A stretch of DNA of 64,000 bases from Candidatus Magasanikiibacteriota bacterium (GCA_043809645.1 JBDROX010000036.1:1713-65712), one strand, 5' to 3'; numbered from the stretch's first letter, positions 14,201 to 58,901 are shown. The notes: generated from the letters alone by a model not told the origin. A program made the numbers and translations.

Positions 14201-14262
14201 TCACAATATTGAATATTTATTTATATTCATGATATACTTTCAGAAGTTAATAAATTATACAT

Positions 14263-14646: not shown

Positions 14647-14649
14647 TCT

Positions 14650-15105: not shown

Positions 15106-15170
15106 CTGTAGTTGAATAGGTGAAACACTCTCCCCTGGAGGGTGTTTTTTTTGATGTAGCATGATATACT

Positions 15171-18861: not shown

Positions 18862-20284
18862 TATGAGAGAATTACATACGCTCACAATCAGAAAAGCCCA
18901 TGATGGTCTTAAGAACGGAGACTTCACATCATTGGAGCTCACGAAGGCATGTCTCGGACAAATAAAAAAGCGCAATAAGAATATTAATGCGTTTATTTCT
19001 GTATTTGATAAAGATGCTCTAGAGGAAGCAAGCAAAGCAGATGAGCTTATTTCAAAAGGAAGACAGAAAGTACTAACCGGCATTCCTTTTTCAGTAAAAG
19101 ATGCTATATGTACTCTGGACTCACGATCTACTGGTGCGGCAAAGATATTGGATAATTACAGAGCACCGTATGAGGCTACTGTGATTACAAAAATACGGGA
19201 GCAGAGTGCTGTACTCCTCGGAAAGACGAATTGTGACTCATTCGGGCATGGTGCAAGTAATGAGAATTCCATGTATGGACCTGTGAGGAATCCTCACGAT
19301 GAAAAACGTGTAGCAGGGGGGTCTTCTGGTGGTGCCGCAGCAGCTGTTGCGGACAATCAATGTATATTTTCTATTGCAGAGGATACTGGTGGCTCTATTC
19401 GTCAGCCAGCGAGCTTCTGTGGTGTAGTAGGTCTCAGGCCATCCTATGGAAGAAATTCACGCTATGGAATCATGCCGATGGCAAGCTCCCTCGACACTGT
19501 TGGGCCAATCACCAAGACAGTCGAAGACACTGCGATACTTATGGAGATTATGGCAGGAAAAGATGAAAAAGATGCAACAACATATAGTGACACTGCCCCG
19601 ATGTATACAAAGGAAATCAATAAAAAGGCAAAAAAACTAAACATTGGCATTCCAAAAGAATACTTTGAGGTGGATGGTTTTGATGAAGAAGTGAAGAAAT
19701 CAGTCTTGGCGCAAATCGATACTCTCAGAGAAGCTGGTCATGAGATAACTGAGATCAATCTCCCAATGACAGAGTACGCTATAGCAGTGTATTATATTCT
19801 CGTCCCAAGTGAGGATAGCTCAAACCTAGGGAGATTGGATGGCATTCGGTATGGTGTAAGGGAAAAAGGAAAGAATCTTGGGGGTGTGTATGCGGCGTCG
19901 AGAGCAAAGGGGTTTCCAGATGAAGTGAAGAGGAGGATCATGACAGGGACATTTGCGCTTTCATATGGGTATTACGATGCATATTACAAGAAAGCACAGA
20001 AAGTCAGAACACTCATCAGTCAGGATTTTGAAAAGGCTTTTGAGAATGTTGATCTTATTCTGACTCCAACCGCACCAACAACAGCATTTAAACTTGGTGA
20101 AAAGAAAAATGACGTCATTGCAATGTACCTTGCAGATGTTTTCGTCTGTCCAGCCGCGATAGCTGGACTTCCTGCGATTTCAATTCCAGTAGGAAAGGAC
20201 AACAATGGTCTTCCAATCGGTATGCAGATTATTGGACCAAGACTTGGGGAAATAGAAGTTCTTTCACTTGCAGCTAGAATATAA
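18854..20284 (+). CDS. gatA: Asp-tRNA(Asn)/Glu-tRNA(Gln) amidotransferase subunit A (amidase signature)
   Basis: 476 aa; GGSSGGAAAAVA amidase signature. Confidence 0.9.
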   Translation: MDSMRELHTLTIRKAHDGLKNGDFTSLELTKACLGQIKKRNKNINAFISVFDKDALEEASKADELISKGRQKVLTGIPFSVKDAICTLDSRSTGAAKILDNYRAPYEATVITKIREQSAVLLGKTNCDSFGHGASNENSMYGPVRNPHDEKRVAGGSSGGAAAAVADNQCIFSIAEDTGGSIRQPASFCGVVGLRPSYGRNSRYGIMPMASSLDTVGPITKTVEDTAILMEIMAGKDEKDATTYSDTAPMYTKEINKKAKKLNIGIPKEYFEVDGFDEEVKKSVLAQIDTLREAGHEITEINLPMTEYAIAVYYILVPSEDSSNLGRLDGIRYGVREKGKNLGGVYAASRAKGFPDEVKRRIMTGTFALSYGYYDAYYKKAQKVRTLISQDFEKAFENVDLILTPTAPTTAFKLGEKKNDVIAMYLADVFVCPAAIAGLPAISIPVGKDNNGLPIGMQIIGPRLGEIEVLSLAARI

Positions 20285-20316: not shown

Positions 20317-21684
20317 ATGAAAAAGGAGACCATCGAAAAATCAAAAAAAGATGCAGAAAAGGATTTTAACTATCTGATAAATGAAACAGGGGAGTATCGT
20401 GATACATGGAGAATATTTCGAATCATGGCAGAGTTCATAGAAGGATATCAATTCCTCTCTAGCCTAGACAAAGAGGTAACTATTCTCGGTTCTGCCAGGC
20501 TTGCAGAAGACCACAAGTATGCGAAGAAGGCTACCGACCTTGGTTTCCTACTTGCAAAAAAGGGATATACGACGATTACAGGTGGTGGTCCTGGTATTAT
20601 GCAGGCAGCGAACAAAGGAGCATTCGAGGCTGGTGGCCAATCTATTGGACTAAATATTCAGCTTCCGTTTGAACAGCGTATCAATCCATATGTAACCAAG
20701 TCGACAGCATTTTACTATTTTTTTACTCGCAAGGTGATGTTGACAAGTCCAGCGCATGCTTTGGTATTCTTTCCTGGTGGATTTGGGACTATGGATGAAT
20801 TCTTCGAGGTTGTTGATCATATTGAGCTTGGAAAAATGTGTGGGGTACCTGTGATCCTCTTTGGGTCTGATTTTTGGAAACCTCTCGTAGAATTTTTGAA
20901 GAAAGACTGTTGTAAAGTCGGTTCTATTCATGTGGAAAAAGTCTCAGAGTGGTTGATAGTCGATAGTGAAGAAGAAGTCTTGGAAGTTATTGAAAATTTT
21001 GATAGATCAAATTATGATAAATGCGAGCTTGCTCCAATGAACTTTCACAAGAACACAAAGGATATTGACTGGAGAATATTTCGAATCATGGCAGAGCTTG
21101 TAGAGGGGTTTGAACTCCTTACCGGTCTTGTCGAGGGTGTCACTGTGTTGGGAACCAAGAGTATGGAAGATGGAAATCCATACTATGATGCTGCATACAC
21201 ACTTGGTAGAGAGCTCGGGAACCATGGCTATGCTGTAGTCACTGGTGGAGCTTCGGGAATTGCAGAAGCTGCTAACAAAGGTGCTATGGAGGTTGGTGCG
21301 GAGTCATATGGTATTGGAATGGAAGTATTTGGGAAGAGTAGGATGAATCAGTATGTGACAAAATCAATATCATTCCGATATCCATTTACCAGAAAGCTGA
21401 TTGTGACAGCCCCATCAAAGGCATTTGTCTTCTTTCCTGGTGGTCTTGGAACTATGCATCAGTTCTTCGAAGTGTTGACCCTCATACAAACAGGAAAGAT
21501 GCAGCAGATTCCTATTATTCTCTTTGATTCATCCTTTTGGGGTGATTTAGATAACTATATTTCAGAAACACTTGCAAAGAATTTTAAGACAATCTCAAAA
21601 AAAGATTGTGAATACTATACAATCGTAGATGATATTGGGGTTGCTATGGATATTATTAAAAAATTTCGAGGAAAAGAGGATTAG
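20317..21684 (+). CDS. tandem-duplicated LOG-family (TIGR00730 / lysine-decarboxylase-like) protein
   Basis: Two collinear modules, each with WRIFRIMAE...GGGPGIM or GGASGIA...RK...PGGFGTMDEF or PGGLGTMHQF. Confidence 0.7.
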   Translation: MKKETIEKSKKDAEKDFNYLINETGEYRDTWRIFRIMAEFIEGYQFLSSLDKEVTILGSARLAEDHKYAKKATDLGFLLAKKGYTTITGGGPGIMQAANKGAFEAGGQSIGLNIQLPFEQRINPYVTKSTAFYYFFTRKVMLTSPAHALVFFPGGFGTMDEFFEVVDHIELGKMCGVPVILFGSDFWKPLVEFLKKDCCKVGSIHVEKVSEWLIVDSEEEVLEVIENFDRSNYDKCELAPMNFHKNTKDIDWRIFRIMAELVEGFELLTGLVEGVTVLGTKSMEDGNPYYDAAYTLGRELGNHGYAVVTGGASGIAEAANKGAMEVGAESYGIGMEVFGKSRMNQYVTKSISFRYPFTRKLIVTAPSKAFVFFPGGLGTMHQFFEVLTLIQTGKMQQIPIILFDSSFWGDLDNYISETLAKNFKTISKKDCEYYTIVDDIGVAMDIIKKFRGKED

Positions 21685-29330: not shown

Positions 29331-32003
29331 TTGAGGCGTCTTATGAACTTCTACCAACAGACAATAGAAGCAGTTTTTGATCATTTTAAGGTTGATGAAA
29401 AACAAGGTTTGAGTGGTTTAAAAGTGAAGAAAGCGCTGAAGATACATGGCAAGAACGAGCTTCCAAGAGCACGAAAGAAAACAACAAACTTGAAAATCTT
29501 TTTGAATCAATGGAAAAGTCCATTGCTTTTTATTTTGTTGGTTGCTGGCTTCATTAGCGGGCTTCTAGGTGAGTACACTGACATGACAGTTATCCTGCTC
29601 ACTGCAGGGATCAATGCTGCCATTGGATACATTCAGGAGAATAAAGCAAATAGTGCACTAGAAAAACTTCAAGAAATGGTTGCATATCAGGCCACAGTGA
29701 TGAGAGATGGAAAAAAGCTTCAGATAGAAAGTAGTAATCTTGTGCCTGGTGATATTCTTTTCCTAGAGGCTGGAGATAAAATTCAGGCAGATGCAAGAAT
29801 CATCTCCACGGTTGATTTCGAAGTACACGAGGCAGCTCTCACAGGAGAGTCACAGGAAGTGAAGAAGAGCCGAGGCGTGATCAAAGATGAAATCGGCGTT
29901 GCTGATAGATACAACACTGTATTCCGAGGGACTACTGCAGTGAATGGACACGCTGTCGTTGTTGTCATTAATACTGGTGAGGAAACAGAGATAGGGAAGA
30001 TTGCCACAATGGTCAAAGATATTAAAGATGAGGAAACACCTCTTCAGAATCAGCTCAAAAAATTAAGTCAAAAGCTTGGTGCGATCGTCCTTGTCATATC
30101 TTTTCTCATTTTCTTGCTTGGAATTTTTGTCAGCAAGGATACAACAATATTTGAAATGTTTGAGACGGCAGTCGCTATTTCAGTTGCTGCCATTCCTGAA
30201 GGACTCATCATATCCCTGACAGTCATACTTGCAATTGGTATGCAGTTTATCCTGAAACGGAACGCACTTGTTCGACGACTTGTGTCTGCAGAGACACTAG
30301 GGAGTGTCAGTGTTATTTGTACAGACAAGACAGGAACTGTCACAGAAGGAAAAATGAGTGTCACAGAACTTGTTACGAAATCAGAACATCTGGATGTTGA
30401 TGAGCTGAGAGTACTGAATTCAAAAAAGGAGGATAGGCATGCTGAAGCATTATTGGCACTTCGCATTGGCACGCTCTGCAACAACGCAAGTCAGAACAGT
30501 GAGAATATATTTGTTGGTGATACTACAGAGACGGCTCTGGCAGAAATAGGATTCTCTGCTGGCATAAATAAAGTGGATTTGGAGAAAACAGTGAGGCGTA
30601 TTGACGAAATTCCTTTTAGTAGTAGAGAGAAGTACATGGTGACGCTTCATCATGCATCAGACGCTGCTTTCATATATGCGAAAGGTGCTCCAGAAGTCAT
30701 TCTTTCAAAGTGCAGTTACTTGAGTACAGCAGGAGGGAATATAAAACTTGAAAAAAAAGAAAAAGATTGGCTTGAGGATGAAATCAGAAAACTTACTGCA
30801 AAAGGATTGCGAGTACTTGCACTTGCGTACAAGGGTACAGATTTATCTTTGGTAGATCTGGGTTCAGAAGATGAAGAAAATCTAACTTTTGCAGGTATAG
30901 TTGGCCTTTCTGATCCAGTTCGTACAGATGTTAAACAAACAATTGAGGTTGCCCGGCAAGCGGGTATTCGAGTTATAATGGTAACAGGTGACCATGCAAT
31001 GACAGCGCGTGCGATTGCAAGCCAAATTGGACTGCCTTCAGATGATCAGAATGTTGTACGTGGTGATGAGCTGCAAAAGATGAGTGAGAAGAAACTCCTG
31101 CAAGTAGTAACACATGCAAGTGTCTTCGCACGCGTAGATCCAAGGGATAAAATTCGGATTGTGAATGCTCTAAAGAAGAATGGGGAGGTTGTTGCTATGA
31201 CAGGGGATGGCGTGAATGATGCTCCAGCGCTCAAAGGAGCAGACATTGGTGTTGCAGTCGGATCTGGCACTGATGTTGCAAAGGAAGTTGCTGAGCTTGT
31301 GATTCTTGATGATAAATTCCCAACTATTGTTGCAGCTGTAGAGGAGGGGAGAACAATTTATCAAAATATCAAGAAAGTTGTTCTCAAATTACTTTCTGAC
31401 AGTTTTACAGAAGTTATTCTTATCTCAGGCAGTCTCATTGCTGGACTTCCTCTTGCACTCCTTCCTGTTCAGATACTCTGGGTGAATCTCATTGAAGATT
31501 CTTTTCCAAATATGGCGCTTGCATTTGATAAGGGTGACAAGGAAAATATGAAAGATCCTCCACGCAAGAAAGGGGTCTCACTAATTGACAAGGAAATGAA
31601 GGTAATGATTGCTATTGTGACTATTGTTCACGATATTGGGCTCCTTACCGCCTATATCATTCTTTCTAAGATTGGTATGGATATTGCTCTTGTCCGTACT
31701 ATTATATTTGCAGCGCTCGCCACGGATTCACTGATTATTATTTATCCAATACGTAGCATGCGGCACATGCTCTGGCAGATCAATCCTTTTGATAACAGGT
31801 ATCTTACAATGAGTGTACTCCTTGGATTGGGATTGTTAATCCTTAGCATTTATGCACAACCTCTTCAATACTTACTTAAAACAATCCCACTGACGGCAGA
31901 GCATTGGCTCCTAGTGATACTTCTTGGTATAATCGACATTATACTTATCGAAGCCATTAAGGGAATTTTTCTTGTTAAAAATCATCATAAATTAAGTGAA
32001 TAA
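29331..32003 (+). CDS. P-type cation-transporting ATPase (P2-type, Ca2+/Mg2+-ATPase-like)
   Basis: 890 aa; ICTDKTGTVT phosphorylation site, TGES, MVTGD, GDGVNDAPAL, 10 TM. Confidence 0.9.
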   Translation: MRRLMNFYQQTIEAVFDHFKVDEKQGLSGLKVKKALKIHGKNELPRARKKTTNLKIFLNQWKSPLLFILLVAGFISGLLGEYTDMTVILLTAGINAAIGYIQENKANSALEKLQEMVAYQATVMRDGKKLQIESSNLVPGDILFLEAGDKIQADARIISTVDFEVHEAALTGESQEVKKSRGVIKDEIGVADRYNTVFRGTTAVNGHAVVVVINTGEETEIGKIATMVKDIKDEETPLQNQLKKLSQKLGAIVLVISFLIFLLGIFVSKDTTIFEMFETAVAISVAAIPEGLIISLTVILAIGMQFILKRNALVRRLVSAETLGSVSVICTDKTGTVTEGKMSVTELVTKSEHLDVDELRVLNSKKEDRHAEALLALRIGTLCNNASQNSENIFVGDTTETALAEIGFSAGINKVDLEKTVRRIDEIPFSSREKYMVTLHHASDAAFIYAKGAPEVILSKCSYLSTAGGNIKLEKKEKDWLEDEIRKLTAKGLRVLALAYKGTDLSLVDLGSEDEENLTFAGIVGLSDPVRTDVKQTIEVARQAGIRVIMVTGDHAMTARAIASQIGLPSDDQNVVRGDELQKMSEKKLLQVVTHASVFARVDPRDKIRIVNALKKNGEVVAMTGDGVNDAPALKGADIGVAVGSGTDVAKEVAELVILDDKFPTIVAAVEEGRTIYQNIKKVVLKLLSDSFTEVILISGSLIAGLPLALLPVQILWVNLIEDSFPNMALAFDKGDKENMKDPPRKKGVSLIDKEMKVMIAIVTIVHDIGLLTAYIILSKIGMDIALVRTIIFAALATDSLIIIYPIRSMRHMLWQINPFDNRYLTMSVLLGLGLLILSIYAQPLQYLLKTIPLTAEHWLLVILLGIIDIILIEAIKGIFLVKNHHKLSE

Positions 32004-32577
32004 TATGTTGAACAAACCCTATACAGCCAAACTTAGAAAACATATGCTTGGATTTGCGACGAAACGTCGTGATGTGATCAAAATGTCTGGTGATGCACTC
32101 CACCATGCCAAGAGGGCTATTTTTGCTATGCACAAGGATGATCTAAAGGAAGCAGAGGCCAAATTGAAACAGAGCGAGGCACTTTTCAGTGGGCTTCATA
32201 AGAAATTCTCAAAAGATTCAGAAATTACAAATGAAGGATCATACAAAGCAGGCCTAGAAGAGTACGTTGAAGCAAGTCTTTTCTACCAGTTCCTTACAAC
32301 TGGTAGAATGGGAGAGCTGAGGGGTCTAGATATAGTACCACATGTCTATATTGCAGGTATCTGTGATGTTCCTGGTGAACTCTTGCGCTATGCCACTAAA
32401 GCTGCTACAAATAAGGATGAAAAAACAGTAAAAAAATGCGCTGAGATGGCCAAGGAAATAGTAGGAGAACTTATTGAGTTCAACCTGACGAGTTACCTCA
32501 GAACCAAGTTTGATCAAGCAAAACGAGCTGTTCAAAAAATTGAATATATTCAGTACGAACTAAGTCTTCGGAAATAG
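31996..32577 (+). CDS. hypothetical helical protein
   Basis: 193 aa, overlaps the stop of the ATPase gene. Confidence 0.35.
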   Translation: MNNMLNKPYTAKLRKHMLGFATKRRDVIKMSGDALHHAKRAIFAMHKDDLKEAEAKLKQSEALFSGLHKKFSKDSEITNEGSYKAGLEEYVEASLFYQFLTTGRMGELRGLDIVPHVYIAGICDVPGELLRYATKAATNKDEKTVKKCAEMAKEIVGELIEFNLTSYLRTKFDQAKRAVQKIEYIQYELSLRK

Positions 32578-37409: not shown

Positions 37410-37480
37410 TCCGGGGTCGTCTAATGGTAGGACTCCAGGTTTTGGTCCTGGCTATCGGGGTTCGAATCCCTGCCCCGGAG
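37410..37480 (+). tRNA. tRNA-Gln(TTG)
   Basis: Hand-folded: acceptor TCCGGGG/CCCCGGA, anticodon stem CCAGG/CCTGG with loop TTTTGGT, T loop TTCGAAT. Confidence 0.8.
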
Positions 37481-37566
37481 CTACGTAAAGTTCGCTACGT
37501 TCACAATGTGGCCAGCTCATATAAAAATGATCTTGCTGCGTGGTGACCGAAGGTCACTTTATGCGA

Positions 37567-37974: not shown

Positions 37975-38020
37975 AAAAAAACATCGCTAACTTTAGATAA
38001 GTTTAGCGGTGTTTTTTTAT
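37975..38020 (+). terminator. rho-independent terminator after tRNA-Asn
   Basis: catcgctaactt-tagat-aagtttagcggtg followed by ttttttt. Confidence 0.45.
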
Positions 38021-38120
38021 GGAGGGAAATCGGATTCGAACTTTATGATTATTTTTTTGAAATTCATGTTATAATATAACCAATAATGAAATTAAAACTA
38101 TTTTATGTCTAAAAAAAATA

Positions 38121-38915
38121 TTGTTTCTTGATTTTTTTAATCCAGGAATGGATTTAATAAGATATTATCATCAGCAACAAGATGCTAAAGTGAAATATGG
38201 TAGTCTTTTCCATGGTGGATCGTTTTTGGAAAATGATTTATACTCATTTGACTGGTTAAATAGATTTGAAAACGCGTGGTTTGGTTTGTATGATGTTATA
38301 TATACATCATCAAAATATACACTCAAATCATGTCCTAAGTCTATACGAAGCAAGTTTAAAGTGTTTCCATGGGGTATGGACGGTATAAAATTTTATGCAA
38401 ATTCTTCTACAAAAGAATGGGGTGTTGTTTTCCCGCATAGATTAAATTCTGATAAAGGTGTGGAGGATTTATTGATAATTATAAAATCAATTCCATATGC
38501 ATCTTTTGCTATTACCGTACCACAAGATTTGAATACACTTACGGAAAATAAATTTTATAAAAAAATTGCTAAGCACAAAAATGTTACTTTTGTCATTAAT
38601 GAGTCAAGAGATCAGCATTTAAAAACACTTTCTAAATCTCGTATTATTTTGAGCTGTGCAAAACAAGAATTGTTTGGTTATTCAGTAATGAAAGGTGTAT
38701 TATCTGGATGCATACCTGTTCTACCAAACCAACTTTGTTATCCAGAATTTTTTGATAAAAAATTTATGTACAAAGATGTTGACGAGGCAATTAATATGAT
38801 AAAAGAATTCATTAAGCAAGATGTGGACGGTGTGGGTGTTAAAAAACTTGATGAGGTAAGAAGGTGTGTATCTTCAATGACTTTTGGAAAGATATTATCC
38901 GATTTTTTTAAGTAA
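38121..38915 (+). CDS. glycosyltransferase-like protein (GT-B C-terminal domain, GT1/GT4-like), N-terminal domain apparently truncated; very AT-rich
   Basis: ELFGYSVMKGVLSGCIPVLPN matches the E-x-FG...EA...G-PV nucleotide-sugar-binding block; only about 100 aa precede it; TTG start in the ORF track, alternative ATG at 38148. Confidence 0.4.
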   Translation: MFLDFFNPGMDLIRYYHQQQDAKVKYGSLFHGGSFLENDLYSFDWLNRFENAWFGLYDVIYTSSKYTLKSCPKSIRSKFKVFPWGMDGIKFYANSSTKEWGVVFPHRLNSDKGVEDLLIIIKSIPYASFAITVPQDLNTLTENKFYKKIAKHKNVTFVINESRDQHLKTLSKSRIILSCAKQELFGYSVMKGVLSGCIPVLPNQLCYPEFFDKKFMYKDVDEAINMIKEFIKQDVDGVGVKKLDEVRRCVSSMTFGKILSDFFK

Positions 38916-38942
38916 TATTTGAAATTAAAAAGTGCACACTCG

Positions 38943-39380
38943 CTAAAAGCATACACTTGACCTCCAAACGCAGACTCCGTCTACAGGATCAATTTTTTGA
39001 ATATGAGGCATAGAATATATATCTATGTCTTTTTTTGCTACAAAGATCAATCCCTTTCGTTTTGTGTAAATTGAATCATGAAAGTGAACTTCAACTTGTT
39101 CGTAGAGTGACCCCTCAAATTCTGTCAGTTTATCTTGTATGTTGTTGAACTCCTTTTCTGATGTATCAAATGTGTTGAACGTTGCCGAAATGAGATGTCC
39201 AGATTCGCAGAGTACTGCGAGTGGGTAAGAATATACACCATTTGGTTCTGTATAGTCTGTAACCCTGTACAGCCAACCTCTGATGAATCCACATATCACA
39301 TGGATAGGCAATGTTCCGCATATTTCACGAAGCAACTCGCTGTTTATCAGTGTTCCATAAAATATGAACGAATTCTGCAT
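38943..39380 (-). CDS. gamma-glutamyl cyclotransferase / AIG2-like family protein
   Basis: N-terminal FIFYGTLINSELL (the GGCT family YGTL motif), 145 aa. Confidence 0.55.
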   Translation of the reverse strand: MQNSFIFYGTLINSELLREICGTLPIHVICGFIRGWLYRVTDYTEPNGVYSYPLAVLCESGHLISATFNTFDTSEKEFNNIQDKLTEFEGSLYEQVEVHFHDSIYTKRKGLIFVAKKDIDIYSMPHIQKIDPVDGVCVWRSSVCF

Positions 39381-39967
39381 TGTAGACTCCTTTTTGTGTT
39401 ATCCGAATAGAGTGCTAACATGTTTTTAGGGTTTTGTCAAGACCCAAGTGGACAAAAACCGTATTGGCCAATACGCTTTTATAAAAAATTTACCGCCAAA
39501 GAAAAACTTGAAATCGCCAAGAAACACCCGACCTCCCCGCAAAAGCGGGGGTGATTGGTTAGGTGCGGCCGCCCCCCTCCGGCCGCACTCATTGTTGGAA
39601 ATGTTTTCGAACTTTCGCGTATTCGCGGAGCCCAGTATAAAAGAAGTTCACTAGGAACTTCTTTTTAATTTCGTATATTGACTTTAATGAAATTTTATGA
39701 TATCTTTGCAAAATCTTTATAGAAAAAGACTATATGTTAAATAAAGTACTAAAAAAATTAAAAGAGTCTGAAATGAAGAATCAGATACGTAGTAGCACTT
39801 CCTCAACGTATGCAGACTACGCCCATACGCTCAATACAAAAAGCTCTGGTTTTCATGCAAAGAAAACAAGTCAGCTAGGTGCTGAAAGGCAACGGAGTAT
39901 AGGCAATAGACAGGGGAAACCAACAAAGAAAACTACATAAAGCTGAATTAGTACTTTTTTTACTTTT

Positions 39968-41011
39968 ATGAATCGAGAGAAAATAATTCAGGAATTTGTC
40001 CCAGGAATACAAAAGTTTCGTTTTGACCAGATAAATAAGGCTCTTTTTGATACTATCTACTCATCTTGGGACGACGTGACGACACTTCCAAAAGAAATGA
40101 AGGCTATTCTTGGTGATAATATCCCTTGGCTTTCATTTCAAGAAAAAGGTTTACATGAAAGTGCCTCACAAGACACATTCAAGGGAATATTTGAAACAGA
40201 TGATGGATTGCTTTTTGAATCAGTACTGATGAAAAATAGAAAGGAGCAGTGGACAATATGTATTTCCAGTCAAGTGGGGTGTGCAATGCGATGTGCTTTT
40301 TGTGCAACCGGTGCAATGGGATTGAAGAGAGGGCTTGAGAGTTGTGAAATTGTTGATCAGTATAGATTCTGGCAAAACTTTCTGAGTGAGCACCCAAACT
40401 TTTCTCAGAGAATTTCTAATGTAGTATTCATGGGAATGGGAGAACCTCTCGCCAATTATGAAAATGTAAAAGCGTCCATTAACACATGGCTGAAATACAC
40501 TGACCTTGGCCCGTCAAAAATTTTGGTTTCAACAGTTGGTATTCTTCCTCAGATGAAAAAATTGCTCACTGATCCAGACTGGCCTGCCACTCGCATTGCA
40601 ATTTCCTTGCACAGCGCAAATCAGCAGAAGCGAGAGGAAATAGTTCCAACAACAACACCAAATTTTCTGAAAGATATAGCAGTCTGGTCTCATGAATATG
40701 AGAAGTTCCGTGGAAATAGAAATCATAAACTTACTTTTGAATATACGCTTATTTCTCATGTCAACGATACACCAGAGCTTGCAGAGGAGCTGGCAAGCTA
40801 TATCGTTAAAACAGCAGTAAGTAAGGTAAATGTGATTCCGTACAATCCAGTGAAAGAAAAAGAATTTTCAAGAGCTGAGAGGGAAAGAATTGATGCATTC
40901 AAGGATATTCTCCGAAATCACGATATTAATGTAACAGAAAGAAAAACAATGGGAGATGACATCGATGCTGCCTGCGGTCAGCTCGTGACACAGAACTCGT
41001 TCTGCACTTGA
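39968..41011 (+). CDS. rlmN: 23S rRNA/tRNA adenine C2-methyltransferase, radical SAM (RlmN/Cfr family)
   Basis: CISSQVGCAMRCAFCATG radical-SAM CxxxCxxC, conserved C-terminal Cys in DIDAACGQL. Confidence 0.85.
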   Translation: MNREKIIQEFVPGIQKFRFDQINKALFDTIYSSWDDVTTLPKEMKAILGDNIPWLSFQEKGLHESASQDTFKGIFETDDGLLFESVLMKNRKEQWTICISSQVGCAMRCAFCATGAMGLKRGLESCEIVDQYRFWQNFLSEHPNFSQRISNVVFMGMGEPLANYENVKASINTWLKYTDLGPSKILVSTVGILPQMKKLLTDPDWPATRIAISLHSANQQKREEIVPTTTPNFLKDIAVWSHEYEKFRGNRNHKLTFEYTLISHVNDTPELAEELASYIVKTAVSKVNVIPYNPVKEKEFSRAERERIDAFKDILRNHDINVTERKTMGDDIDAACGQLVTQNSFCT

Positions 41012-43807: not shown

Positions 43808-44488
43808 ATGGGACATTTTGATAGAAACAACAGAGGTGCTGGTGGATTCAACAATAGAAATTCTGGTGGAGGAAGCTTCAATAGAGGTGGGGATAGACCT
43901 CAGATGCATGATGCCACTTGCAAGAAGTGTGGAAATTACTGCCAGGTACCATTTCGACCAACAGGAAGTAAACCAGTATTTTGTAGCGACTGTTTTGGTA
44001 AACAAAATGACGGCGGAAGAGGAAGCTTTGGTGGTAGAGGTGACAGAAAATTTGGAAATAAAAAATCTTTTGGCGGTTCTCAAAATATGCACCCAGCAGT
44101 CTGTGATACATGTGGAAATGACTGTGAGGTACCATTTCGACCAACAGGAGACAAGCCAATCTATTGCAGCAACTGTTTTGGAAAAGATTCCAAAAGTGGT
44201 GGCAGTAGTAAAGGTGGCTCATGCAATTGTTCTCCAGAAATTAAAAAACTTGAGGGCAAGATTGATAGCATCCTCAAAACACTTGGTATTCCAGAACCAA
44301 AGAAGTATGTAGCTCCAATAAAGCCAGAAAAGAAAAAAGAAGAATCGAAGAAAGCTGTACCTGCAAAGACAGAGAAGAAAGAGGTAGATACAGATCCTAA
44401 GCCAAAAAAAGTAAAGAAAACAAAAGTAGCACCAAAAAAAGTAAAGAAAGCTGTAAAAAAGAAAGCTGCAACTAAGAAGAAGAAATAG
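43808..44488 (+). CDS. Gly/Arg-rich protein with two tandem CxxC...C zinc-ribbon modules and a histone H1-like Lys/Ala/Pro-rich C-terminal tail
   Basis: CKKCGNYCQVPFRPTGSKPVFCSDCF and CDTCGNDCEVPFRPTGDKPIYCSNCF repeats; tail KKVKKTKVAPKKVKKAVKKKAATKKKK; the overlapping track ORFs (43773-44312, 43751-44092, 43878-44222) are shadows. Confidence 0.55.
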   Translation: MGHFDRNNRGAGGFNNRNSGGGSFNRGGDRPQMHDATCKKCGNYCQVPFRPTGSKPVFCSDCFGKQNDGGRGSFGGRGDRKFGNKKSFGGSQNMHPAVCDTCGNDCEVPFRPTGDKPIYCSNCFGKDSKSGGSSKGGSCNCSPEIKKLEGKIDSILKTLGIPEPKKYVAPIKPEKKKEESKKAVPAKTEKKEVDTDPKPKKVKKTKVAPKKVKKAVKKKAATKKKK

Positions 44489-48961: not shown

Positions 48962-50215
48962 TTGAAAAGTATGAATCCAAAGAAAGAAGTTTACCTCGAC
49001 TATGCTGCAACTTCCCCAGTAGCAGATGAAGTACTTGGGGCGATGGAGCCATATTTTTCTGTTCATTTTGGTAACCCATCGTCTATCTATAGTCGCGGAC
49101 TGGAAGCCAGAACTGCAGTGGGTGAATCAAGAAAAACAATTGCCTCATTTCTTGGAACTACAGCAGACACCATATTCTTCATGAGTGGTGGAACTGAGTC
49201 AATTAATACTGCAATTTTTGGAGCCGCAAGGAAACATAAGGAATATGGAAATCATATCATTACTACCGCGATAGAACATAAAGCTGTACTGAATTCATTA
49301 AAGGCTTTAGAAAAAGAAGGCTTTGAAGTTACTTATCTCCCTGTTGATAAACACGGCCTCGTGACTGCACAGCAAATTATGGGTGCCATAACAAATAAAA
49401 CATTACTTATCAGCATCATGTATGCAAATAATGAAATTGGTTCTATAGAACCAATTGCTGACATAGGAAAAGAAATACTAAAATTTAAAAAACATAATGA
49501 ATCAATATATCCACTCTTTCATACAGATGCATGCCAGGCCACAAACTATCTCGATATGCATGTAGAAAAATTACACGCAGACCTTCTCTCATTCAACGGA
49601 TCCAAAATGAATGGTCCAAAAGGCTGCGGTGTACTCTATATGAGAAGGGGAGTAAAAATAGAACAGATGATATATGGTGGTTCTCAGGAATTTGGCTTTC
49701 GTGCTGGAACAGAGGATGTGCCAAGTATAGTGGGAATGGCCAAAGCAGTTGAGCTCATCATGCAAAATGGAGAAAAAAATGCAAATAAAGTAAGGAAACT
49801 CCGAGATTATTTTTGGGAAGAAACTCAGAGAGCAGTACCAAAAATCATGCTCAACGGGCCTGCGCTAGAAGACACAGACAAAAGGTTGCCAAATAATCTC
49901 CATATATCTATCCTTGATATTGAAGGAGAAGCACTACTCCTATATCTAGATGAAAAAGGAATTATGTGTTCCACAGGGAGCGCCTGTAATTCCAGTTCAC
50001 TCGAACCTTCCCATGTGCTCACAGAGTGTGGGCTTCCATATGAATATGCTCATGGAACACTTCGATTTACTCTGGGGGCATCAACAACCAAAGAAGAAAT
50101 CGACTATGTTATTGATCATCTCCCTGGAGTTGTTGAAAAACTTAGAAAGATGTCACCTGTTAATCTAGAAATTGACCATACAGACAATACGCATGCACAG
50201 TATCATCAGAAATAA
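48962..50215 (+). CDS. cysteine desulfurase (class V aminotransferase, IscS/NifS-like)
   Basis: PLP-lysine region SFNGSKMNGPKG, active-site Cys loop STGSACNS. Confidence 0.9.
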   Translation: MKSMNPKKEVYLDYAATSPVADEVLGAMEPYFSVHFGNPSSIYSRGLEARTAVGESRKTIASFLGTTADTIFFMSGGTESINTAIFGAARKHKEYGNHIITTAIEHKAVLNSLKALEKEGFEVTYLPVDKHGLVTAQQIMGAITNKTLLISIMYANNEIGSIEPIADIGKEILKFKKHNESIYPLFHTDACQATNYLDMHVEKLHADLLSFNGSKMNGPKGCGVLYMRRGVKIEQMIYGGSQEFGFRAGTEDVPSIVGMAKAVELIMQNGEKNANKVRKLRDYFWEETQRAVPKIMLNGPALEDTDKRLPNNLHISILDIEGEALLLYLDEKGIMCSTGSACNSSSLEPSHVLTECGLPYEYAHGTLRFTLGASTTKEEIDYVIDHLPGVVEKLRKMSPVNLEIDHTDNTHAQYHQK

Positions 50216-50216
50216 T

Positions 50217-50879
50217 ATGGAAAAAGAGAAAAAAAACCAAGAAGCAAAAATACTAGACCTTCAGGGCAATGAATGGCTTTATTCTGATATTGTGAAAGAT
50301 CATTTTTTCCATCCTAGAAATATTCTTTTCCCAGGAGAAGAAGATAGTTTTGATGCCGATGCTGTTGGGAGAGTAGGTTCTCCAGCTTGTGGTGATGAGA
50401 TGGTACTATGGATTAAGATAGACAAAGAGTCAGAGAAAATTACTGACTGCAAATGGCAAACGTTTGGTTGTGGCAGTGCCATTGCATCTACATCCATGCT
50501 TTCTGAGATAGTAAAGAAAGATGGAGGCATGACAGTGGATGATGCTATGAAGCTCAAGCCCCAGGATATTATTGTTGAGCTCGGTGGACTCCCTAACAGA
50601 AAAATTCATTGTAGTGTCCTCGGAGACAAGGCCCTCCATAGTGCAGTCAATGATTGGTTTCGTAAGACTGGTCAGCATGTTAGAGTTGTGAGAACAGGCG
50701 CAAAAATAATTGACAAAGATCTCAATATTACAGACAAAGATATTGAAGAGGCAGTTCTCGAAGGTGCAACAACTGTAGAGGAAGTCCAAAGAAAATTAAA
50801 AGTCGGAGTTGCAAAACCAGAGTCTATTCCAGAAATTGAACAATTGATTAGATTTTATTCAGAAAAATACTATGGTTAA
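50217..50879 (+). CDS. NifU/IscU-like Fe-S cluster scaffold with C-terminal extension
   Basis: IscU cysteines GSPACGDEM, FGCGSAIAS, HCSVLGD; start taken at MEKEKK after the desulfurase stop. Confidence 0.75.
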   Translation: MEKEKKNQEAKILDLQGNEWLYSDIVKDHFFHPRNILFPGEEDSFDADAVGRVGSPACGDEMVLWIKIDKESEKITDCKWQTFGCGSAIASTSMLSEIVKKDGGMTVDDAMKLKPQDIIVELGGLPNRKIHCSVLGDKALHSAVNDWFRKTGQHVRVVRTGAKIIDKDLNITDKDIEEAVLEGATTVEEVQRKLKVGVAKPESIPEIEQLIRFYSEKYYG

Positions 50880-51171
50880 AAAAGTACGAGTTTGTAGAAG
50901 CAGAACATGTGATGTGTTTGATTCAGAAAAAATTCTTAAAAAAATTGAAAAAGAAACAAACTTGAAAGCTGGAGAAAGCAATGATACAATTGATCTGGAT
51001 ACATGTGGATGTCTTGGGTACTGCCATAGATCACCAAACGTTGCTATTGATGATAATAATATTATATATGAAGCAGGTATTAAGACAGTCATGGAAGAGA
51101 TAGAGAGCGGTGGTGAGGCCATGGATATTCAAGACAAAGATGTGGATAACATACTTCAACAATATTCATAA
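50872..51171 (+). CDS. thioredoxin-like [2Fe-2S] ferredoxin
   Basis: VCRSRTC ... CGCLGYC cysteine pattern. Confidence 0.55.
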   Translation: MVKKVRVCRSRTCDVFDSEKILKKIEKETNLKAGESNDTIDLDTCGCLGYCHRSPNVAIDDNNIIYEAGIKTVMEEIESGGEAMDIQDKDVDNILQQYS

Positions 51172-51174
51172 TAT

Positions 51175-51462
51175 ATGGAAAAAGTAGAAGATCAATTTTC
51201 AGACGATATTTCCGTAGGAAAGCGTAACAAAGGAAAAATTAGAAAGATTATTGTTGACAGAGAAGCGTGTATTGGCGCCAGAAGCTGCACTATTGTTGCA
51301 GAGAATCTCTTTGCTATGGATGATGAGAATCTGGCCTATGTTGTGGATGGAGATTTGAATGAGGTTGACGAAGAAACTATCAAGCTTGCTGCGCAGGCAT
51401 GTCCTGTTCTTGCTATTCACCTTTTTGGTGAGGATGGTAAGAAACTCTTTCCAGAAGAATAA
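51175..51462 (+). CDS. small single-cluster ferredoxin
   Basis: DREACIGARSC ... AQACPV. Confidence 0.55.
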   Translation: MEKVEDQFSDDISVGKRNKGKIRKIIVDREACIGARSCTIVAENLFAMDDENLAYVVDGDLNEVDEETIKLAAQACPVLAIHLFGEDGKKLFPEE

Positions 51463-51523
51463 TAGTTTTCAAATAAAATAGGGAGGCCGTGGTATCACGG
51501 TTTTTTTCATTTAGTAAAGCAGT

Positions 51524-52537
51524 ATGCATAAATTTATTGCAGAATACATCTGGATAGATGGTCAGAAACCAACGGCAAAGCTAAGATCGAAAACAAAAAT
51601 ACTAGATCATCCAATAGATAGTCTAGACGATATTCCACAGTGGGGTTTTGATGGATCGAGCACAGAACAGACCACTGATGCGAATAGCGACTGCCTTCTC
51701 GACCCGGTGAAATTTTTCAAAGATCCAGTACGTAGAGATGGGCATGTTCTCGTCCTCTGCGAGGTTATGAACCCAGATGGTTCGCCACATAGTAGCAACA
51801 CTCGAGCAAGACTCAGAGAATTGGCAAGGAAACATGAGAAGGAAGAGGCGCTTTTTGGTATAGAACAGGAATATACACTTTTTGATGGAGTATCACCTCT
51901 TGGGTGGCCAGATAGAGGTTTCCCAGCGCCACAGGGTGGATATTACTGTGGTGTGGGTGCTGATGAAGTGTATGGAAGAGAAATAGTAGAGGAACATCTT
52001 CAGGCATGCCTAGATGCTAATATCCGCATATCAGGAATCAATGCAGAGGTGATGCCCGCACAGTGGGAATATCAGGTCGGGGCTATTGGACCGCTAGAGG
52101 TAGCCGATCAGCTCTGGATTTCTCGTTGGTTACTGTATAGAATTGCAGAAAATCACAAGGTGAGTGCAACACTATACCCAAAACCAATCAAAGGTGATTG
52201 GAATGGTGCAGGAGCACACACGAACTTTAGTACGAAGAAAATGAGAGAGACTGGAGGGATTGAAGTGATCAATGAAGCATGTAGAAAACTAGAACAGAGA
52301 CACAAAGAACATATAAAAATCTACGGTGCACATAACAGAGAACGTCTCACTGGACTCCATGAGACATGCTCGATAGATGAATTCCGCTATGGCGTGAGTG
52401 ACAGGGGGGCGTCCATTAGAATCCCGTTGATGACGCAGAATAATGGATATGGATATCTCGAAGACAGAAGACCTGCGGCGAATATGGATCCATATCAAGT
52501 TTGCAGGGTGATGCTTGAAACAATTTGTGGAGAATAA
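51524..52537 (+). CDS. glnII: glutamine synthetase type II (eukaryote-like GSII)
   Basis: EYIWIDG, GIEQEYTLF, YYCGVGAD, NAEVMPAQWEYQVG, NGAGAHTNFS, DRGASIRIP; near-collinear with eukaryotic GS over about 340 aa. Confidence 0.85.
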   Translation: MHKFIAEYIWIDGQKPTAKLRSKTKILDHPIDSLDDIPQWGFDGSSTEQTTDANSDCLLDPVKFFKDPVRRDGHVLVLCEVMNPDGSPHSSNTRARLRELARKHEKEEALFGIEQEYTLFDGVSPLGWPDRGFPAPQGGYYCGVGADEVYGREIVEEHLQACLDANIRISGINAEVMPAQWEYQVGAIGPLEVADQLWISRWLLYRIAENHKVSATLYPKPIKGDWNGAGAHTNFSTKKMRETGGIEVINEACRKLEQRHKEHIKIYGAHNRERLTGLHETCSIDEFRYGVSDRGASIRIPLMTQNNGYGYLEDRRPAANMDPYQVCRVMLETICGE

Positions 52538-52539
52538 AA

Positions 52540-52568
52540 ATAACCCGCCAATTAGGTGGGCTATTTAA
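52540..52568. terminator. bidirectional hairpin terminator between the convergent GSII and clpB genes
   Basis: cccgcc-aatta-ggtggg flanked by A/T runs; the clpB stop abuts the hairpin. Confidence 0.5.
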
Positions 52569-55203
52569 TTGCAATTTTTCCTTTCTCAATATCCACAGTT
52601 AGTTTCTTTCCCTCTGGAATCTTCTTCTGAAGTATTTCCATAGCTATTCTGTCGAGGAGTTCAGTCTGGATAATGCGCTTGAGCGGCCTTGCACCAAGAT
52701 TTGGATCAAAGCCTTTCTTTCCAAGCCAATCTCTAACTTTTTTTGATACCTCGAGCTCAATATGTTTATCTGTAAGTCTTGCAAATACATACTCGAGCTG
52801 CAAGTCAACAATTTCTCGTATTTGAATCTTATCGAGTGGATGAAACGTAATAATTTCATCAATTCTATTCAAAAACTCAGGTTTGAAATGTCCCCGAAGT
52901 CCGTCCGTGATTTTCTCTTTCATCTTCTCTTGCTTCTCTTGCTTCTCTGATTTTCCATTCATCTTGGAGCCAAAACCAAACTCACCAGAGCTACCCATCT
53001 GCATAATGACGTCACTGGCAATGTTACTCGTCATGATGATAACAGTATTTTTGAAGTTTACCTTTCGACCCTTGGCGTCTGTGAGTTGTCCATCTTCTAG
53101 GATCTGGAGCATCATATTGAACACATCTGGATGTGCTTTTTCTATTTCGTCAAACAGCACAACGCTGTATGGTCTGCGCCTGACAGTTTCTGTGAGCTGA
53201 CCACCTTCGTCATATCCAACATATCCAGGAGGAGACCCAATCATCTTGCTAGTTGCATGTCGCTCCATATATTCACTCATATCAACTCGAACCAGTGCTT
53301 CTTCGTCGTTGAACATGAACTCAGCAAGAGCACGTGCCATCTCTGTTTTACCAACCCCAGTCGGACCCATGAATAGAAAAGATCCAATAGGACGCTTCTC
53401 TTCGCTTACACCTGCACGAGAACGCCTGATTGCATTAGAAACAGCTGAAATCGCCTCTTTTTGACCTATAACACGCTTTCCAAGATCATCCTCCATGTGA
53501 ATGAGCTTCTTAAGATCATCCTCAAGCATCTTTGTCACAGGAATACCAGTCCATCTGGACACAACACCAGCAATATCTTCTTCTGAGACTTCTTCTTTTA
53601 GAATTGCTTTGTCTTGTTGTAAATTTAAGAGCTTATTCTCAAGTTTCTTAATTTTCTCTTCAATCTTAGGGACATCCCCATAACGGATCTCTGCGACTTT
53701 TTGGAGATCACCCTTTCTTTCCATGATTTCAGCTTTTTGCTTCAACTCATCTATCTCTTTTCTATGTTTTCTGATAGCAGTAATGATCTCTTTTTCATTT
53801 CTCCACCTGAGCTCAAGTTCATCGCTCTGTTCCTTTAAATTTGCAAGTTCTTTTTTGAGATCAGCCTCACGAGCTTTTGATTCTTTATCTTTTTCTTTTG
53901 TAAGCGCTCGGAGTTCAATCTCTATCTTCATGATTTTTCGTTTTAGCTTGTCCAGATCATCTGGCATAGATTCGATCTCCATACGAAGAGCAGACGTTGC
54001 CTCGTCAATGAGATCGATTGCCTTGTCTGGGAGAAAACGGTCAGAAATATATCTACTCGAAAGTTTTACTGCGGAAACAATTGCTGGATCAGTGATACGA
54101 ACACCATGATGAATCTCATATTTTTCCTTGATCCCACGCAGGATTGCAATAGCATCTTCTTCACTCGGTTCTCTTACTAATACGGGTTGAAATCTGCGCT
54201 CAAAAGCAGCATCTTTTTCAATATGTTTCTGGTATTCCTTCAGCGTCGTCGCTCCTACGGTATGAAGCTCACCGCGAGCAAGAGCTGGCTTCAGCATATT
54301 AGACGCATCCACGGCACCTTCTGAGCTCCCTGCACCAACAATACCGTGAAGCTCATCGATGAAAAGAATTATTTTTCCAGCAGAATCTGTTACTTCTTTT
54401 AGCACTGCCTTAAATCGCTCTTCAAATTCTCCACGGAACTTGGTCCCTGCGATGAGAGAACCAATGTCTAGAGCAATAAGTTCTTTATCTTTCAGACTTT
54501 CCGGGACATCACCGTTCACAATTCTCTGTGCAAGGCCCTCAGCAATGGCAGTTTTTCCTACACCAGGTTCACCAATCAGAACTGGATTATTTTTTGTTCT
54601 ACGTGTGAGCACTTGCATTACTCTTCGGATCTCATCATCACGCCCAATCACAGGATCCATTTTTTCCTGTCTTGCGAGCTCTGTAAAATTCTTTCCATAT
54701 TTCTCTAGTGCCTGGTACTTAGATTCTGGAGTAGGGGAGTCAACCTTTTGCGAACCACGAACTTTTGCCAAGACTTTGAGAACTTCTCTGTGTTGCACTC
54801 CCTGGCGTGAAAGTGCATCACTCACCGGATTCTTATTTGTAAGAAAAGCAAGCAGGAGATGCTCAACGCTAATATAGTCATCTCCCATTTTCTGAGATTC
54901 CTGACTTGCAGTGTTGAGTATGAATAGCATGGCCTGCCCCATCATAATCTGGCTCATATCACCACCGCCTGAAGCATTATCTTGCTTTGGAAGGGAATCA
55001 ACCATCTTTTGAACATCCCCAGATAGCTGCTCTATATTTACCTCAAGTTTTTTAAGAACAGAGAGAACAAGACCATCAACTTGCTGAATAAGAGATAAAA
55101 AGAGGTGTGGAGGTTCTACTTGCTGCTGTCTATTGGCATTCGCGAGAAGAGCAGCATCCTGAAGTGCTTCTTGTGATTTTTGTGTAAAATTTTGTGGAGG
55201 CAT
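52561..55203 (-). CDS. clpB: ATP-dependent chaperone ClpB
   Basis: 880 aa; two AAA+ modules (GEPGVGKT and GPTGVGKT) with a middle coiled-coil domain. Confidence 0.9.
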
Positions 55204-57447: not shown

Positions 57448-58901
57448 ATGACAAAGACTAGATTTGCTCCAAGTCCAACAGGATTCCTGCATATAGGAGG
57501 TCTTAGGACTGCACTCTTTGCGTACCTCCATGCAAAGAAATCTGGAGGAATATTTTTACTTCGAATAGAGGATACTGACAGAGAAAGGTTCGTAGAGGGT
57601 GGTATGGAAAATATTCTCAATTCACTCTCCTGGGCTGGCATCACACCTGATGAGGGGGTTGTGCAGAACAAAAATGGCAACATTGTACAAAAGGGTGAAC
57701 ACGGGCCATATATTCAGTCAGAGAGAAACGATATTTATAATGAACATATCCAAAAACTTCTGGATAGTGGGCACGCATACCATTGTTTTTGTAGTAGGGA
57801 AAGGCTTGGCGAGGTGAGAGAAGAGCAACAAAAAAACAAACAGCCTACACTCTATGATGGACACTGTAGAAACATGTCTGAAAATGAAGTCAAGGAAAGA
57901 TTAGAAGAACAAGATGTACAGCATGTTATCCGTCTAAGAATCCCGGAAGAGGGTACAACGTCTTTTGAAGACAGCATTAGAGGCACAGTTAAATTCAAAA
58001 ATAGTCTAATCGATGATCAAGTGCTCCAGAAGTCTGATGGATTCCCAACCTACCATCTCGCAAATGTTGTTGATGATCATCTCATGGAAATTACACACGT
58101 CATCAGAGGAGAGGAGTGGCTTTCTTCAACTCCAAAGCATATTCTTCTGTATCAATTTTTTGGATGGAAAGTGCCAACCTTTGCACATCTTCCACTTCTG
58201 ATCAATGAACAGAAGCAGAAGTTGAGTAAACGTCATGGTGACGTCTCTGTAGAAGACTTCAAAGAAGCCGGCTATCTTCCAGAGGCACTTGTAAATTTCG
58301 TTGCGTTTCTCGGTTGGAACCCTGGTGACGAGAGAGAAATATTTACTCTCAGCGAACTCACAGATGAGTTTGATCTTTCAAAAGTCCAAAAAGCAGCAGC
58401 TGTTTTCAACAGAGAGAAGTTAAATTGGGTAAATAAACACTATATTTGTCAGATGGAACCAGATTTCCTTCTTGAGGCAACGAAACCTTTCTTTCAAAAT
58501 GCAAATCTCGACCTGTCCGTCGTCCGTCGTCCGTCGTCGAACTGGAGCAGGGAAGAGCGGAAACTTTAAAAGCTCTCGTTGAAGAAACAGCTTTTATCTT
58601 TGCAAAAAATCTAGAGTATCAGTCAGAGCTCCTTGTCTGGAAGAAGAGTACAACAAAAGATGCCAAAGAAAAGTTAGAAGAGCTTATGGATTTCTTTGAG
58701 ACCATTGAAAAGTGGGAGGAGGTAGAACTAAAAACAATGAAATGGATCCAAGACAATGGCTACGGAAATGGTGACGTCCTCTGGCCAATGCGAGTTGCTC
58801 TTTCTGGAAAGAAGAATTCCCCAAGTCCATTTGAGATAGCACAAGTACTTGGGAAAGGCGTGTCACTAAAAAGAATCTCAGCCGCAATTGAGGTATTATA
58901 G
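57448..58901 (+). pseudogene. gltX: glutamyl-tRNA synthetase split by a frameshift at a gtccgtc x3 heptanucleotide tandem repeat (58515-58535)
   Basis: N-terminal ORF (57448-58569) has HIGH-like PTGFLHIGG and KLSKRHG; the frame then switches and the +0 frame continues ...ELEQGRAETLKALVEE...WPMRVALSGKKNSPSPFEI (anticodon-binding domain, ORF 58686-58901); removing two repeat copies (14 bp) restores ...NANLDLSVVELEQGRAE... Confidence 0.7.

Follow-up and report, generated by a model that had tools for sequence, protein, structure and literature searches.

In Candidatus Magasanikbacteria, the class II glutamine synthetase (GSII) gene glnII is an accessory gene at one fixed junction, between a ferredoxin gene and clpB, where some close relatives carry it and others do not. 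We found this in a 64-kb stretch of DNA (64,000 nucleotides; GCA_043809645.1, JBDROX010000036.1:1713-65712; hereafter the window) from a member of that taxon, which belongs to the Patescibacteria/Parcubacteria group of the candidate phyla radiation (CPR). To judge from its sequence, the gene is a real, intact and native GlnII. The gene and its class were already known, and the new element is only the pattern of presence and absence among close relatives. We consider the account as a whole (a functional GlnII, an amide-donor role, a native accessory gene, and a single gain followed by losses) to be very probable; the enzymatic activity, the oligomeric state, the role and the single gain are the parts that we infer.

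The window encodes an ordinary bacterial GlnII

The coding sequence and its two domains are as follows.

51524..52537, + strand: glnII coding sequence, 337 aa, class II glutamine synthetase (ATG-to-stop open reading frame [ORF], NF041605, 4bax match)
51539..51775, + strand: N-terminal beta-grasp domain, residues 6-84, which holds D43 (PF03951 Gln-synt_N, 46.1 bits against a cut-off of 33.4)
51827..52534, + strand: C-terminal catalytic domain, residues ~102-337 (PF00120 Gln-synt_C, 63 bits against a cut-off of 24)

A preliminary description of this gene had assigned its product to GSII rather than to the dodecameric bacterial class I enzyme (GSI), an assignment that was borne out. The six sequence blocks on which it relied are all present (EYIWIDG at residue 7, GIEQEYTLF at 112, YYCGVGAD at 140, MPAQWEYQVG at 177, NGAGAHTNFS at 227 and DRGASIRIP at 293). 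The protein matched the NCBIfam equivalog NF041605, 'glutamine synthetase GlnII', at 521.7 bits (cut-off 500, E = 7e-157), with residues 4-336 aligned to positions 3-330 of the 333-position model, while the GSI model TIGR00653 (68.4 bits, cut-off 429.15) and the class III model TIGR03105 (38.2 bits, cut-off 470) fell far below their thresholds. The top match among solved structures was 4bax (344 aa, 463 bits, 61.5% identity), with which residues 4-335 are collinear (4bax residues 4-335; 332 residues, one 2-residue gap); the database label is only 'glutamine synthetase', and we take the entry to be the Streptomyces coelicolor GSII. Scores against 16 solved GSII sequences ranged from 362 to 463 bits, including 407 bits for yeast (3fky) and 362-377 bits for plant, insect and mammalian enzymes, whereas no GSI chain scored above 49 bits; this places the protein with GSII and not in GSI or another non-GSII clade. 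On these scores, the match to the family is not attributable to chance. An identical protein in NCBI (MFH1286860.1, Candidatus Magasanikbacteria bacterium, from a 75,248-bp MAG contig) had already been named glutamine synthetase GlnII by the NCBI annotation pipeline, so this identity is on record. The enzyme is thus an ordinary bacterial GlnII of a well-known family and by itself teaches nothing new.

We aligned the window protein with 80 GTDB loci and four PDB sequences (85 GSII sequences in total) and found 16 catalytic or ligand residues to be invariant: E114, E116, E175, E182, H232 and E313, together with D43, N227, G228, S236, R274, E280, R294, R299, R315 and R316. The first six are 1:1 counterparts of E129, E131, E192, E199, H249 and E330 of maize GS1a, the positions of the two-metal site in the maize structure. 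D43 corresponds to maize D56, and R274, E280, R294, R299 and R315 correspond to R291, E297, R311, R316 and R332; the functional roles of these aligned residues are presumed from the maize, human and GSI structure literature. A GLNA_1-like signature pattern lies at residues 42-59 and an ATP-site-like pattern, KPIKGDWNGAGAHTNFS, at residues 220-236, and the GSI adenylylation-site pattern had no match in the 337-aa protein (signature and adenylylation patterns after PROSITE). As far as these residues can tell, there is no sign of a pseudogene or of an altered substrate. Solved GSII enzymes are decamers of two pentameric rings with the active site between neighbouring subunits. The 4bax entry holds 10 chains, and from the 61.5% identity to it, the window's GlnII would be expected to form the same decamer of two pentameric rings.

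glnII is native to the genome

The reduced-genome host named in the preliminary description is supported by the source name (Magasanikbacteria, CPR), a statement based on taxon and made for the window. The window fits a CPR genome, with a coding density of 87% and many ORFs without a Pfam family, and it also carries type IV pilus genes, genes resembling a type IV secretion system (T4SS), and peptidoglycan and cell-division genes. A comparison of composition and codon usage with neighbouring genes, which the preliminary description had proposed, found glnII to be indistinguishable from the rest of the window in its codons (log-likelihood z = -0.07) and within the range of conserved genes in its GC content (0.446, with 0.399 as the mean of the window and z = +1.66; the genes for a DEAD-box helicase and cysteinyl-tRNA synthetase have similar values).

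Gene order was more telling. In the window, NifS, NifU and two ferredoxins are followed by glnII and then by clpB (on the opposite strand), LigT, WecG, SpoU and glutamyl-tRNA synthetase (GluRS), and the order NifS-(NifU/SUF)-ferredoxin-glnII-clpB(-)-WecG-SpoU-GluRS recurs in L010 (a Patescibacteria metagenome-assembled genome [MAG]), L020 (a Magasanikbacteria MAG), L081, L085 and L100. Among these, L081, a JGI contig, holds the closest GlnII homologue. Syntenic neighbours are 39-77% identical to those of the window, and GlnII, at 66-78%, falls in a comparable range. The frame of ferredoxin and Fe-S genes with ClpB was absent from all 79 non-CPR GlnII loci. In one other CPR genome (L014), glnII lies at a different site, flanked by a DsbA-like gene and rpsB-tsf. 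Because glnII has the codon usage of the window and sits in the same slot in five further CPR genomes, we conclude that it is native to this CPR genome, with synteny being decisive.

glnII is present in some close relatives and absent from others

The slot that glnII occupies has the following borders.

51175..51462, + strand: 4Fe-4S single-cluster ferredoxin, left border of the slot (Pfam Fer4_13/Fer4_15)
52561..55203, - strand: clpB, convergent with glnII, right border of the slot (Pfam ClpB domain set; 71-77% identical in syntenic relatives)

To compare relatives, we located ClpB in metagenome contigs, as an anchor, and inspected the region past the clpB stop codon. The in-group was limited to loci that share the WecG-SpoU-GluRS flank and whose ClpB has an identity of 71% or more; it gave 19 distinct evaluable loci. 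glnII was present in three of the 19 (L085, L096 and L100, the last of which equals L020). In five (L084, L088, L093, L097 and L101), the ferredoxin gene stands 51-186 nt from clpB with nothing between; unrelated ORFs fill the slot in another five (L089/90, L091, L099, L102 and L110), and the ferredoxin is missing as well in six. No glnII was found near clpB in loci with ClpB 56-67% identical.

In a ClpB tree, glnII-positive and glnII-negative genomes were interleaved, and one six-member clade was entirely negative (100% bootstrap). The sharpest contrast was between L085, which has glnII, and L088, which does not: the two are sisters at 100% bootstrap with ClpB 94.7% identical, and their DNA is homologous up to a point shortly beyond the stop codon of clpB and again from the stop codon of the ferredoxin gene. 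The difference is a clean indel, with 1.7 kb in L085 (glnII plus a 97-aa ORF) replaced in L088 by an 84-nt spacer with a hairpin. A search of the glnII-negative slots for pseudogene remnants of glnII returned none at E <= 1. Collectively, these data establish glnII as an accessory gene at one fixed junction in Magasanikbacteria.

The glnII copies in the slot are 66-78% identical to each other, and the ClpB copies 72-78%. Because the two have diverged to a similar extent, an old insertion followed by repeated loss is favoured, in which glnII would have been gained a single time and then lost. Going further, it is possible, although we hold it only tentatively and think it somewhat doubtful, that the presence or absence of glnII at the ferredoxin/clpB junction marks a live step of genome reduction, in which the keepers would make their own glutamine and the deleters (L088 as against L085) would depend fully on glutamine from a host or community. 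If this were true, the slot would offer a natural experiment on metabolic dependency in CPR bacteria and serve as a marker of it.

Small ORFs were also seen between glnII and clpB, one of 97 aa in L085 (9731..10024) and three of 121, 107 and 188 aa in L010 (11205..13053), of which the 107- and 188-aa ORFs have no Pfam family.

The protein is nearest to bacterial GlnII and may have a lateral origin

The preliminary description had called the enzyme eukaryote-type, which holds as a class label for GSII but not as an affinity, the protein being nearer to bacterial GlnII. Its identity is 52-54% to the eukaryotic enzymes (yeast, maize, Drosophila), 61.5% to 4bax, and 70-74% to sequences from Acidobacteriota, Marinimicrobia and other CPR. 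In a neighbour-joining (NJ) tree, the bacterial sequences, including that of the window, split from yeast, maize and Drosophila at 100% bootstrap, and positions within the bacterial clade had a support of no more than 43-53%. The nearest relatives, at 68-74% identity, were from Thermoanaerobaculia and other Acidobacteriota, Marinimicrobia/Fidelibacterota, Binatia, two MAGs labelled Gammaproteobacteria, and other CPR. The GlnII sequences of CPR, Acidobacteriota, Marinimicrobia and Binatia form one tight, star-like clade of 68-78% identity.

Housekeeping matches on the flanks of single non-CPR loci were lower: 45% for BipA (L027), 46% for a DEAD-box helicase (L070) and 27-33% for FtsE (nine loci). 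That GlnII identity far exceeds housekeeping identity between CPR and non-CPR loci hints at transfer of glnII between phyla, as does the fact that GlnII itself can diverge to 61% (4bax) and 53% (eukaryotes). These comparisons suggest inter-phylum transfer and make a lateral origin plausible; identity gaps to the putative donor lineages are only 1-2%, within noise. In leave-one-out profile scoring, each of the eight CPR GlnII sequences favoured the CPR profile, by a margin of +12 to +50 bits, but this profile also acts as a generalist for outsiders, and we therefore do not claim CPR monophyly. In the sequence of events that we propose, glnII would have entered the slot once, in an ancestor, by transfer within the tight bacterial GlnII clade to which Acidobacteriota, Marinimicrobia and Binatia also belong, and would then have been lost repeatedly.

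Two MAGs labelled Gammaproteobacteria (L001 and L052) have a GlnII that groups with the CPR copies in the NJ tree and scores best on the CPR profile. Their gene context is not CPR-like (GC of 0.52 and 0.45; an M17 aminopeptidase, an F420 ligase-like protein and a subtilase as neighbours), and their GlnII may represent a further transfer event or a mislabelled bin.

Hairpins separate glnII from its neighbours

The features around glnII are as follows.

48962..51171, + strand: Fe-S assembly genes and 2Fe-2S ferredoxin, given as context (Pfam; no functional tie to glnII is implied)
48962..50215, + strand: NifS-like cysteine desulfurase (Pfam; best NCBIfam match NifS, below the curated cut-off)
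50172..50879, + strand: NifU scaffold (Pfam; best NCBIfam match NifU, below the curated cut-off)
50872..51171, + strand: thioredoxin-like 2Fe-2S ferredoxin (Pfam)
51480..51507, + strand: terminator- or attenuator-like hairpin with U-tract in the ferredoxin-glnII spacer (sequence, RNA fold)
52544..52560, no strand assigned: G+C-rich, terminator-like hairpin (CCCGCC-AATTA-GGTGGG, fold -10.1 kcal/mol) in the 23-nt gap between the convergent stop codons of glnII and clpB

The preliminary description had also noted that glnII adjoins an Fe-S and ferredoxin cluster. The position is correct, on the same strand and upstream, and a 4Fe-4S ferredoxin homologue directly precedes glnII in L010, L020, L081, L085 and L100 as well; the adjacency nevertheless looks positional and not operonic, because hairpins separate the ferredoxin gene from glnII and because the ferredoxin gene abuts clpB where glnII is absent. 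The spacer from the ferredoxin stop codon to the glnII ATG is 61 nt long and contains a 12-bp hairpin followed by a U-tract (-15.8 kcal/mol, z = -4.15, with none of 200 shuffles as stable). A hairpin and U-tract occupy the same position in L010, L081 and L085, and in L010 an extended -10 box, TGCTATAAT, lies downstream of the hairpin. Alignment of four CPR loci revealed no sequence conservation upstream of glnII (43% mean column identity), and the hairpin-plus-U architecture alone recurs. Rfam searches of the glnII leader, which included the glutamine-riboswitch families, gave at E <= 10 only chance-level matches far below gathering scores. The predicted arrangement is most likely one in which glnII forms its own transcription unit between the ferredoxin gene and clpB.

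The Fe-S genes of this neighbourhood vary among the loci. The window and L010 have NifS and NifU only, whereas L020 and L081 have NifS with SufB/D/S/C (in L081 with an Rrf2 regulator). In L020, the 2Fe-2S and 4Fe-4S ferredoxins are fused in one 215-aa ORF (9182..9829), whereas the corresponding part of the window (50872..51462) holds two ORFs 3 nt apart.

Alternative explanations

Several observations weigh against the account given above. The slot, filled by unrelated ORFs in five of the 19 in-group loci, is a possible hot spot of gain and loss. Pairwise identities of GlnII and ClpB among glnII-positive genomes gave rho = 0.13 over a narrow range, a value that is uninformative about co-inheritance. 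Monophyly of the CPR GlnII received 0% NJ bootstrap, with nearest neighbours that vary by sequence, and a search for clade-specific signature residues in CPR GlnII found none, the same result as for random quartets. The hairpin upstream of glnII could block rather than allow its expression. Finally, ammonium transporters have been reported absent from Patescibacteria (PMC13274591), so that ammonia entry would have to be passive. Were the ferredoxin/clpB junction a recombination hot spot at which Magasanikbacteria acquired glnII several times independently, the unrelated ORFs in the slots of L089/90, L091, L099, L102 and L110, the non-monophyly of CPR GlnII with its differing nearest neighbours, the uncorrelated GlnII and ClpB distances and the lack of glnII remnants in glnII-negative genomes would all find an explanation. 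However, six genomes share glnII in the same orientation at the same junction, all eight CPR sequences prefer the leave-one-out CPR profile, and the divergence of GlnII (66-78%) matches that of ClpB (72-78%), as co-inheritance predicts, while the 1-2% differences in identity to donors are within noise. We regard repeated independent acquisition as unlikely, if still deserving of some weight, and retain a single gain followed by losses.

The remaining alternatives concern what glnII does and whether it belongs to this genome. If glnII were part of a ferredoxin/Fe-S operon and tied to the redox state of ferredoxin, for example as half of a ferredoxin-dependent cycle of glutamine synthetase and glutamate synthase (GOGAT), one would expect the 4Fe-4S ferredoxin gene that indeed lies directly 5' of glnII on the same strand in the window, L010, L020/L100, L081 and L085, and an FNR-like flavoprotein is also encoded nearby. 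Yet a hairpin and U-tract split the ferredoxin gene from glnII in four loci, with a -10 box after one of them (L010); the ferredoxin gene stays beside clpB in five relatives without glnII; neither GOGAT nor glutamate dehydrogenase (GDH) was found in the window or the flanks examined; this ferredoxin is missing from the vicinity of glnII in all 79 non-CPR loci; and the glutamine synthetase reaction needs no electron donor. Such coupling is, in our judgement, quite improbable. A still smaller chance attaches to the protein being a related ligase with another substrate (a gamma-glutamyl-polyamine or -ethanolamide synthetase) or a regulatory pseudo-enzyme. Bacterial paralogues of the glutamine synthetase fold with altered substrates do exist, such as the Streptomyces GlnA2-4 group, and the window protein has a weak NCBIfam match to gamma-glutamylputrescine synthetase (41 against 650 bits), but those paralogues are GSI-like and not GSII, the protein passes the GlnII equivalog cut-off, and D43, S236, E280 and all ligands of metal, ATP and glutamate are invariant with characterised GSII. 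We rejected the different-substrate reading on the basis of the NF041605 match and the invariant ligands. Least credible of all is that glnII is a contaminant, a mis-binned fragment or a very recent xenolog. The highest identities after the exact match include sequences from outside CPR (74% for P0061, which has a non-CPR context, and 73% for Thermoanaerobaculia), and the GC content of glnII is somewhat above the window mean (z = +1.66); against this, the gene lies in the middle of 64 kb of uniform composition, the genes on both sides have syntenic counterparts, 39-77% identical, in CPR MAGs and metagenome contigs that were assembled independently, and codon usage is the same as in the rest of the window. 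Synteny and codon usage together led us to reject contamination.

A proposed role as a source of amide nitrogen

CPR bacteria (Patescibacteria) are usually described as lacking most amino-acid biosynthesis. The window's GlnII would ligate ammonia to L-glutamate with ATP, by way of gamma-glutamyl-phosphate, at its two-metal site; ATP-dependent glutamine synthesis is its predicted activity. We propose that glutamine would be made from scavenged glutamate and ammonia as an amide donor for amidotransferases, and would not serve bulk nitrogen assimilation. Neither GOGAT nor GDH was detected in the window or in the flanks of the loci examined. Two features of the window bear on the use of glutamine.

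18568..20284, + strand: gatC-gatA, subunits of Glu-tRNA(Gln)/Asp-tRNA(Asn) amidotransferase (TIGR00135, 61.1 bits against 47.1; TIGR00132, 568.3 bits against 481.1)
37410..37481, + strand: tRNA-Gln, anticodon TTG (ARAGORN and Rfam)

Among 61 window ORFs scanned, the sole tRNA-synt_1c match (the GluRS/GlnRS type) was a gltX-type GluRS, which scored 40.8 against a threshold of 425.8 on the glnS model. The presence of gatC, gatA, a bacterial-type GluRS and tRNA-Gln in the window points to the indirect, glutamine-consuming route to Gln-tRNA, and GatCA(B) is a likely consumer of the glutamine that GlnII would make. The peptidoglycan genes MurE, MurG and FtsW are also in the window and would imply a need for GlmS, another user of glutamine. 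Of the other amidotransferases, we assume that GlmS, PyrG and GuaA are present in this organism.

Knowing which CPR lineages keep a glutamine synthetase helps to establish what their hosts or neighbours must supply, and an accessory glnII at a conserved slot offers a handle on the stepwise loss of nitrogen self-sufficiency. Our literature search found no paper pairing Magasanikbacteria with glutamine synthetase; searches for CPR, Patescibacteria or Parcubacteria with glutamine synthetase gave generic mentions only, and those for GlnII with horizontal gene transfer gave rhizobial papers on multilocus sequence analysis.

Comparison with known glutamine synthetases

The window protein shares with 4bax and other bacterial GlnII its length class (337 against 344 aa), the two-domain architecture, all catalytic residues and the lack of the GSI adenylylation motif. 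The setting differs: the host is a CPR bacterium, presumably with a genome of ~1 Mb, and not a free-living actinomycete or rhizobium, and glnII is here an accessory gene in a variable slot, with no evidence in the analysis of GlnR- or NtrC-type control. The GlnII of Acidobacteriota (Thermoanaerobaculia), Marinimicrobia/Fidelibacterota and Binatia are alike in sequence (68-74% identity) and length (336-338 aa), but their gene contexts are wholly unlike the ferredoxin/Fe-S/ClpB frame of the window. Eukaryotic cytosolic GSII (3fky, maize 2d3a, Drosophila 7cpr and human 2ojw) have the same class, fold and active-site residues at 52-54% identity; they differ in having some 15-40 extra N-terminal residues (alignments start at chain residues 17-44), and score 362-407 bits. 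With GSI (GlnA, TIGR00653), the protein has in common the superfamily, the chemistry and a partial alignment of the catalytic core at 25-49 bits, whereas GSI is ~450-480 aa long with an adenylylation loop, the motif of which is absent from the 337-aa window protein.

Within Patescibacteria, a preprint reports that one Saccharimonadia genus is enriched in glnA compared with its family and reads this as expanded amino-acid capacity (bioRxiv 10.64898/2026.09.16.751625), so a patchy distribution of glutamine synthetase in this group is already a recognised pattern. That report and ours agree in finding a glutamine synthetase in some members of a Patescibacteria lineage. They differ in that the preprint deals with another CPR class, uses the generic KEGG K01915 with the class of synthetase unstated, and has no presence/absence analysis at a fixed slot.

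Other features of the window

A frameshift with its junction at ~58516..58540 divides the GluRS gene (57448..58897; gltX_bact equivalog, 503.8 bits), such that residues 1-356 of the 497-aa L010 homologue are matched in one frame and residues 371-497 in another. The junction coincides with a 7-nt tandem repeat (gtccgtc, ~3.5 copies), in which the gain or loss of a single unit changes the reading frame; at the corresponding site, L010 and L020 lack such a repeat. The frameshift is either an artefact of assembly or strain mixture or real slippage in an essential gene.

An 855-aa T4SS coupling-like protein (TraG/VirD4/TrwB) is flanked within 2004..7502 by ORFs of 535, 227 and 195 aa without a Pfam family. 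At 7694..9118, a leucine-rich-repeat protein (186 aa) adjoins a protein with a Gmad2 immunoglobulin-like domain, both of which may be located at the surface or take part in interaction with a host. A type IV pilus cluster at 13070..15938 (PilM-like protein, response-regulator receiver, pilin with N-methylation motif, and prepilin peptidase) keeps its order in L010.

Directly 3' of gatC-gatA, 20317..21684 encodes a 455-aa protein with two tandem LOG/'lysine decarboxylase-like' domains (TIGR00730, SLOG). Translin is an RNA/DNA-binding family known mainly from eukaryotes and archaea, and a 193-aa member (PF01997, 76.8 bits) is encoded at 31996..32577, with an 8-nt overlap with the preceding gene for a P-type cation ATPase. 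The part of the window with the lowest GC content is 38001..40000 (0.339 against ~0.40), which includes two ORFs (38121..38915 and 38943..39380) without a Pfam family. Between greA and typA/bipA, a 226-aa protein encoded at 43808..44488 contains two copies of a 'probable treble-clef zinc finger' (PF23477, 108.9 bits).

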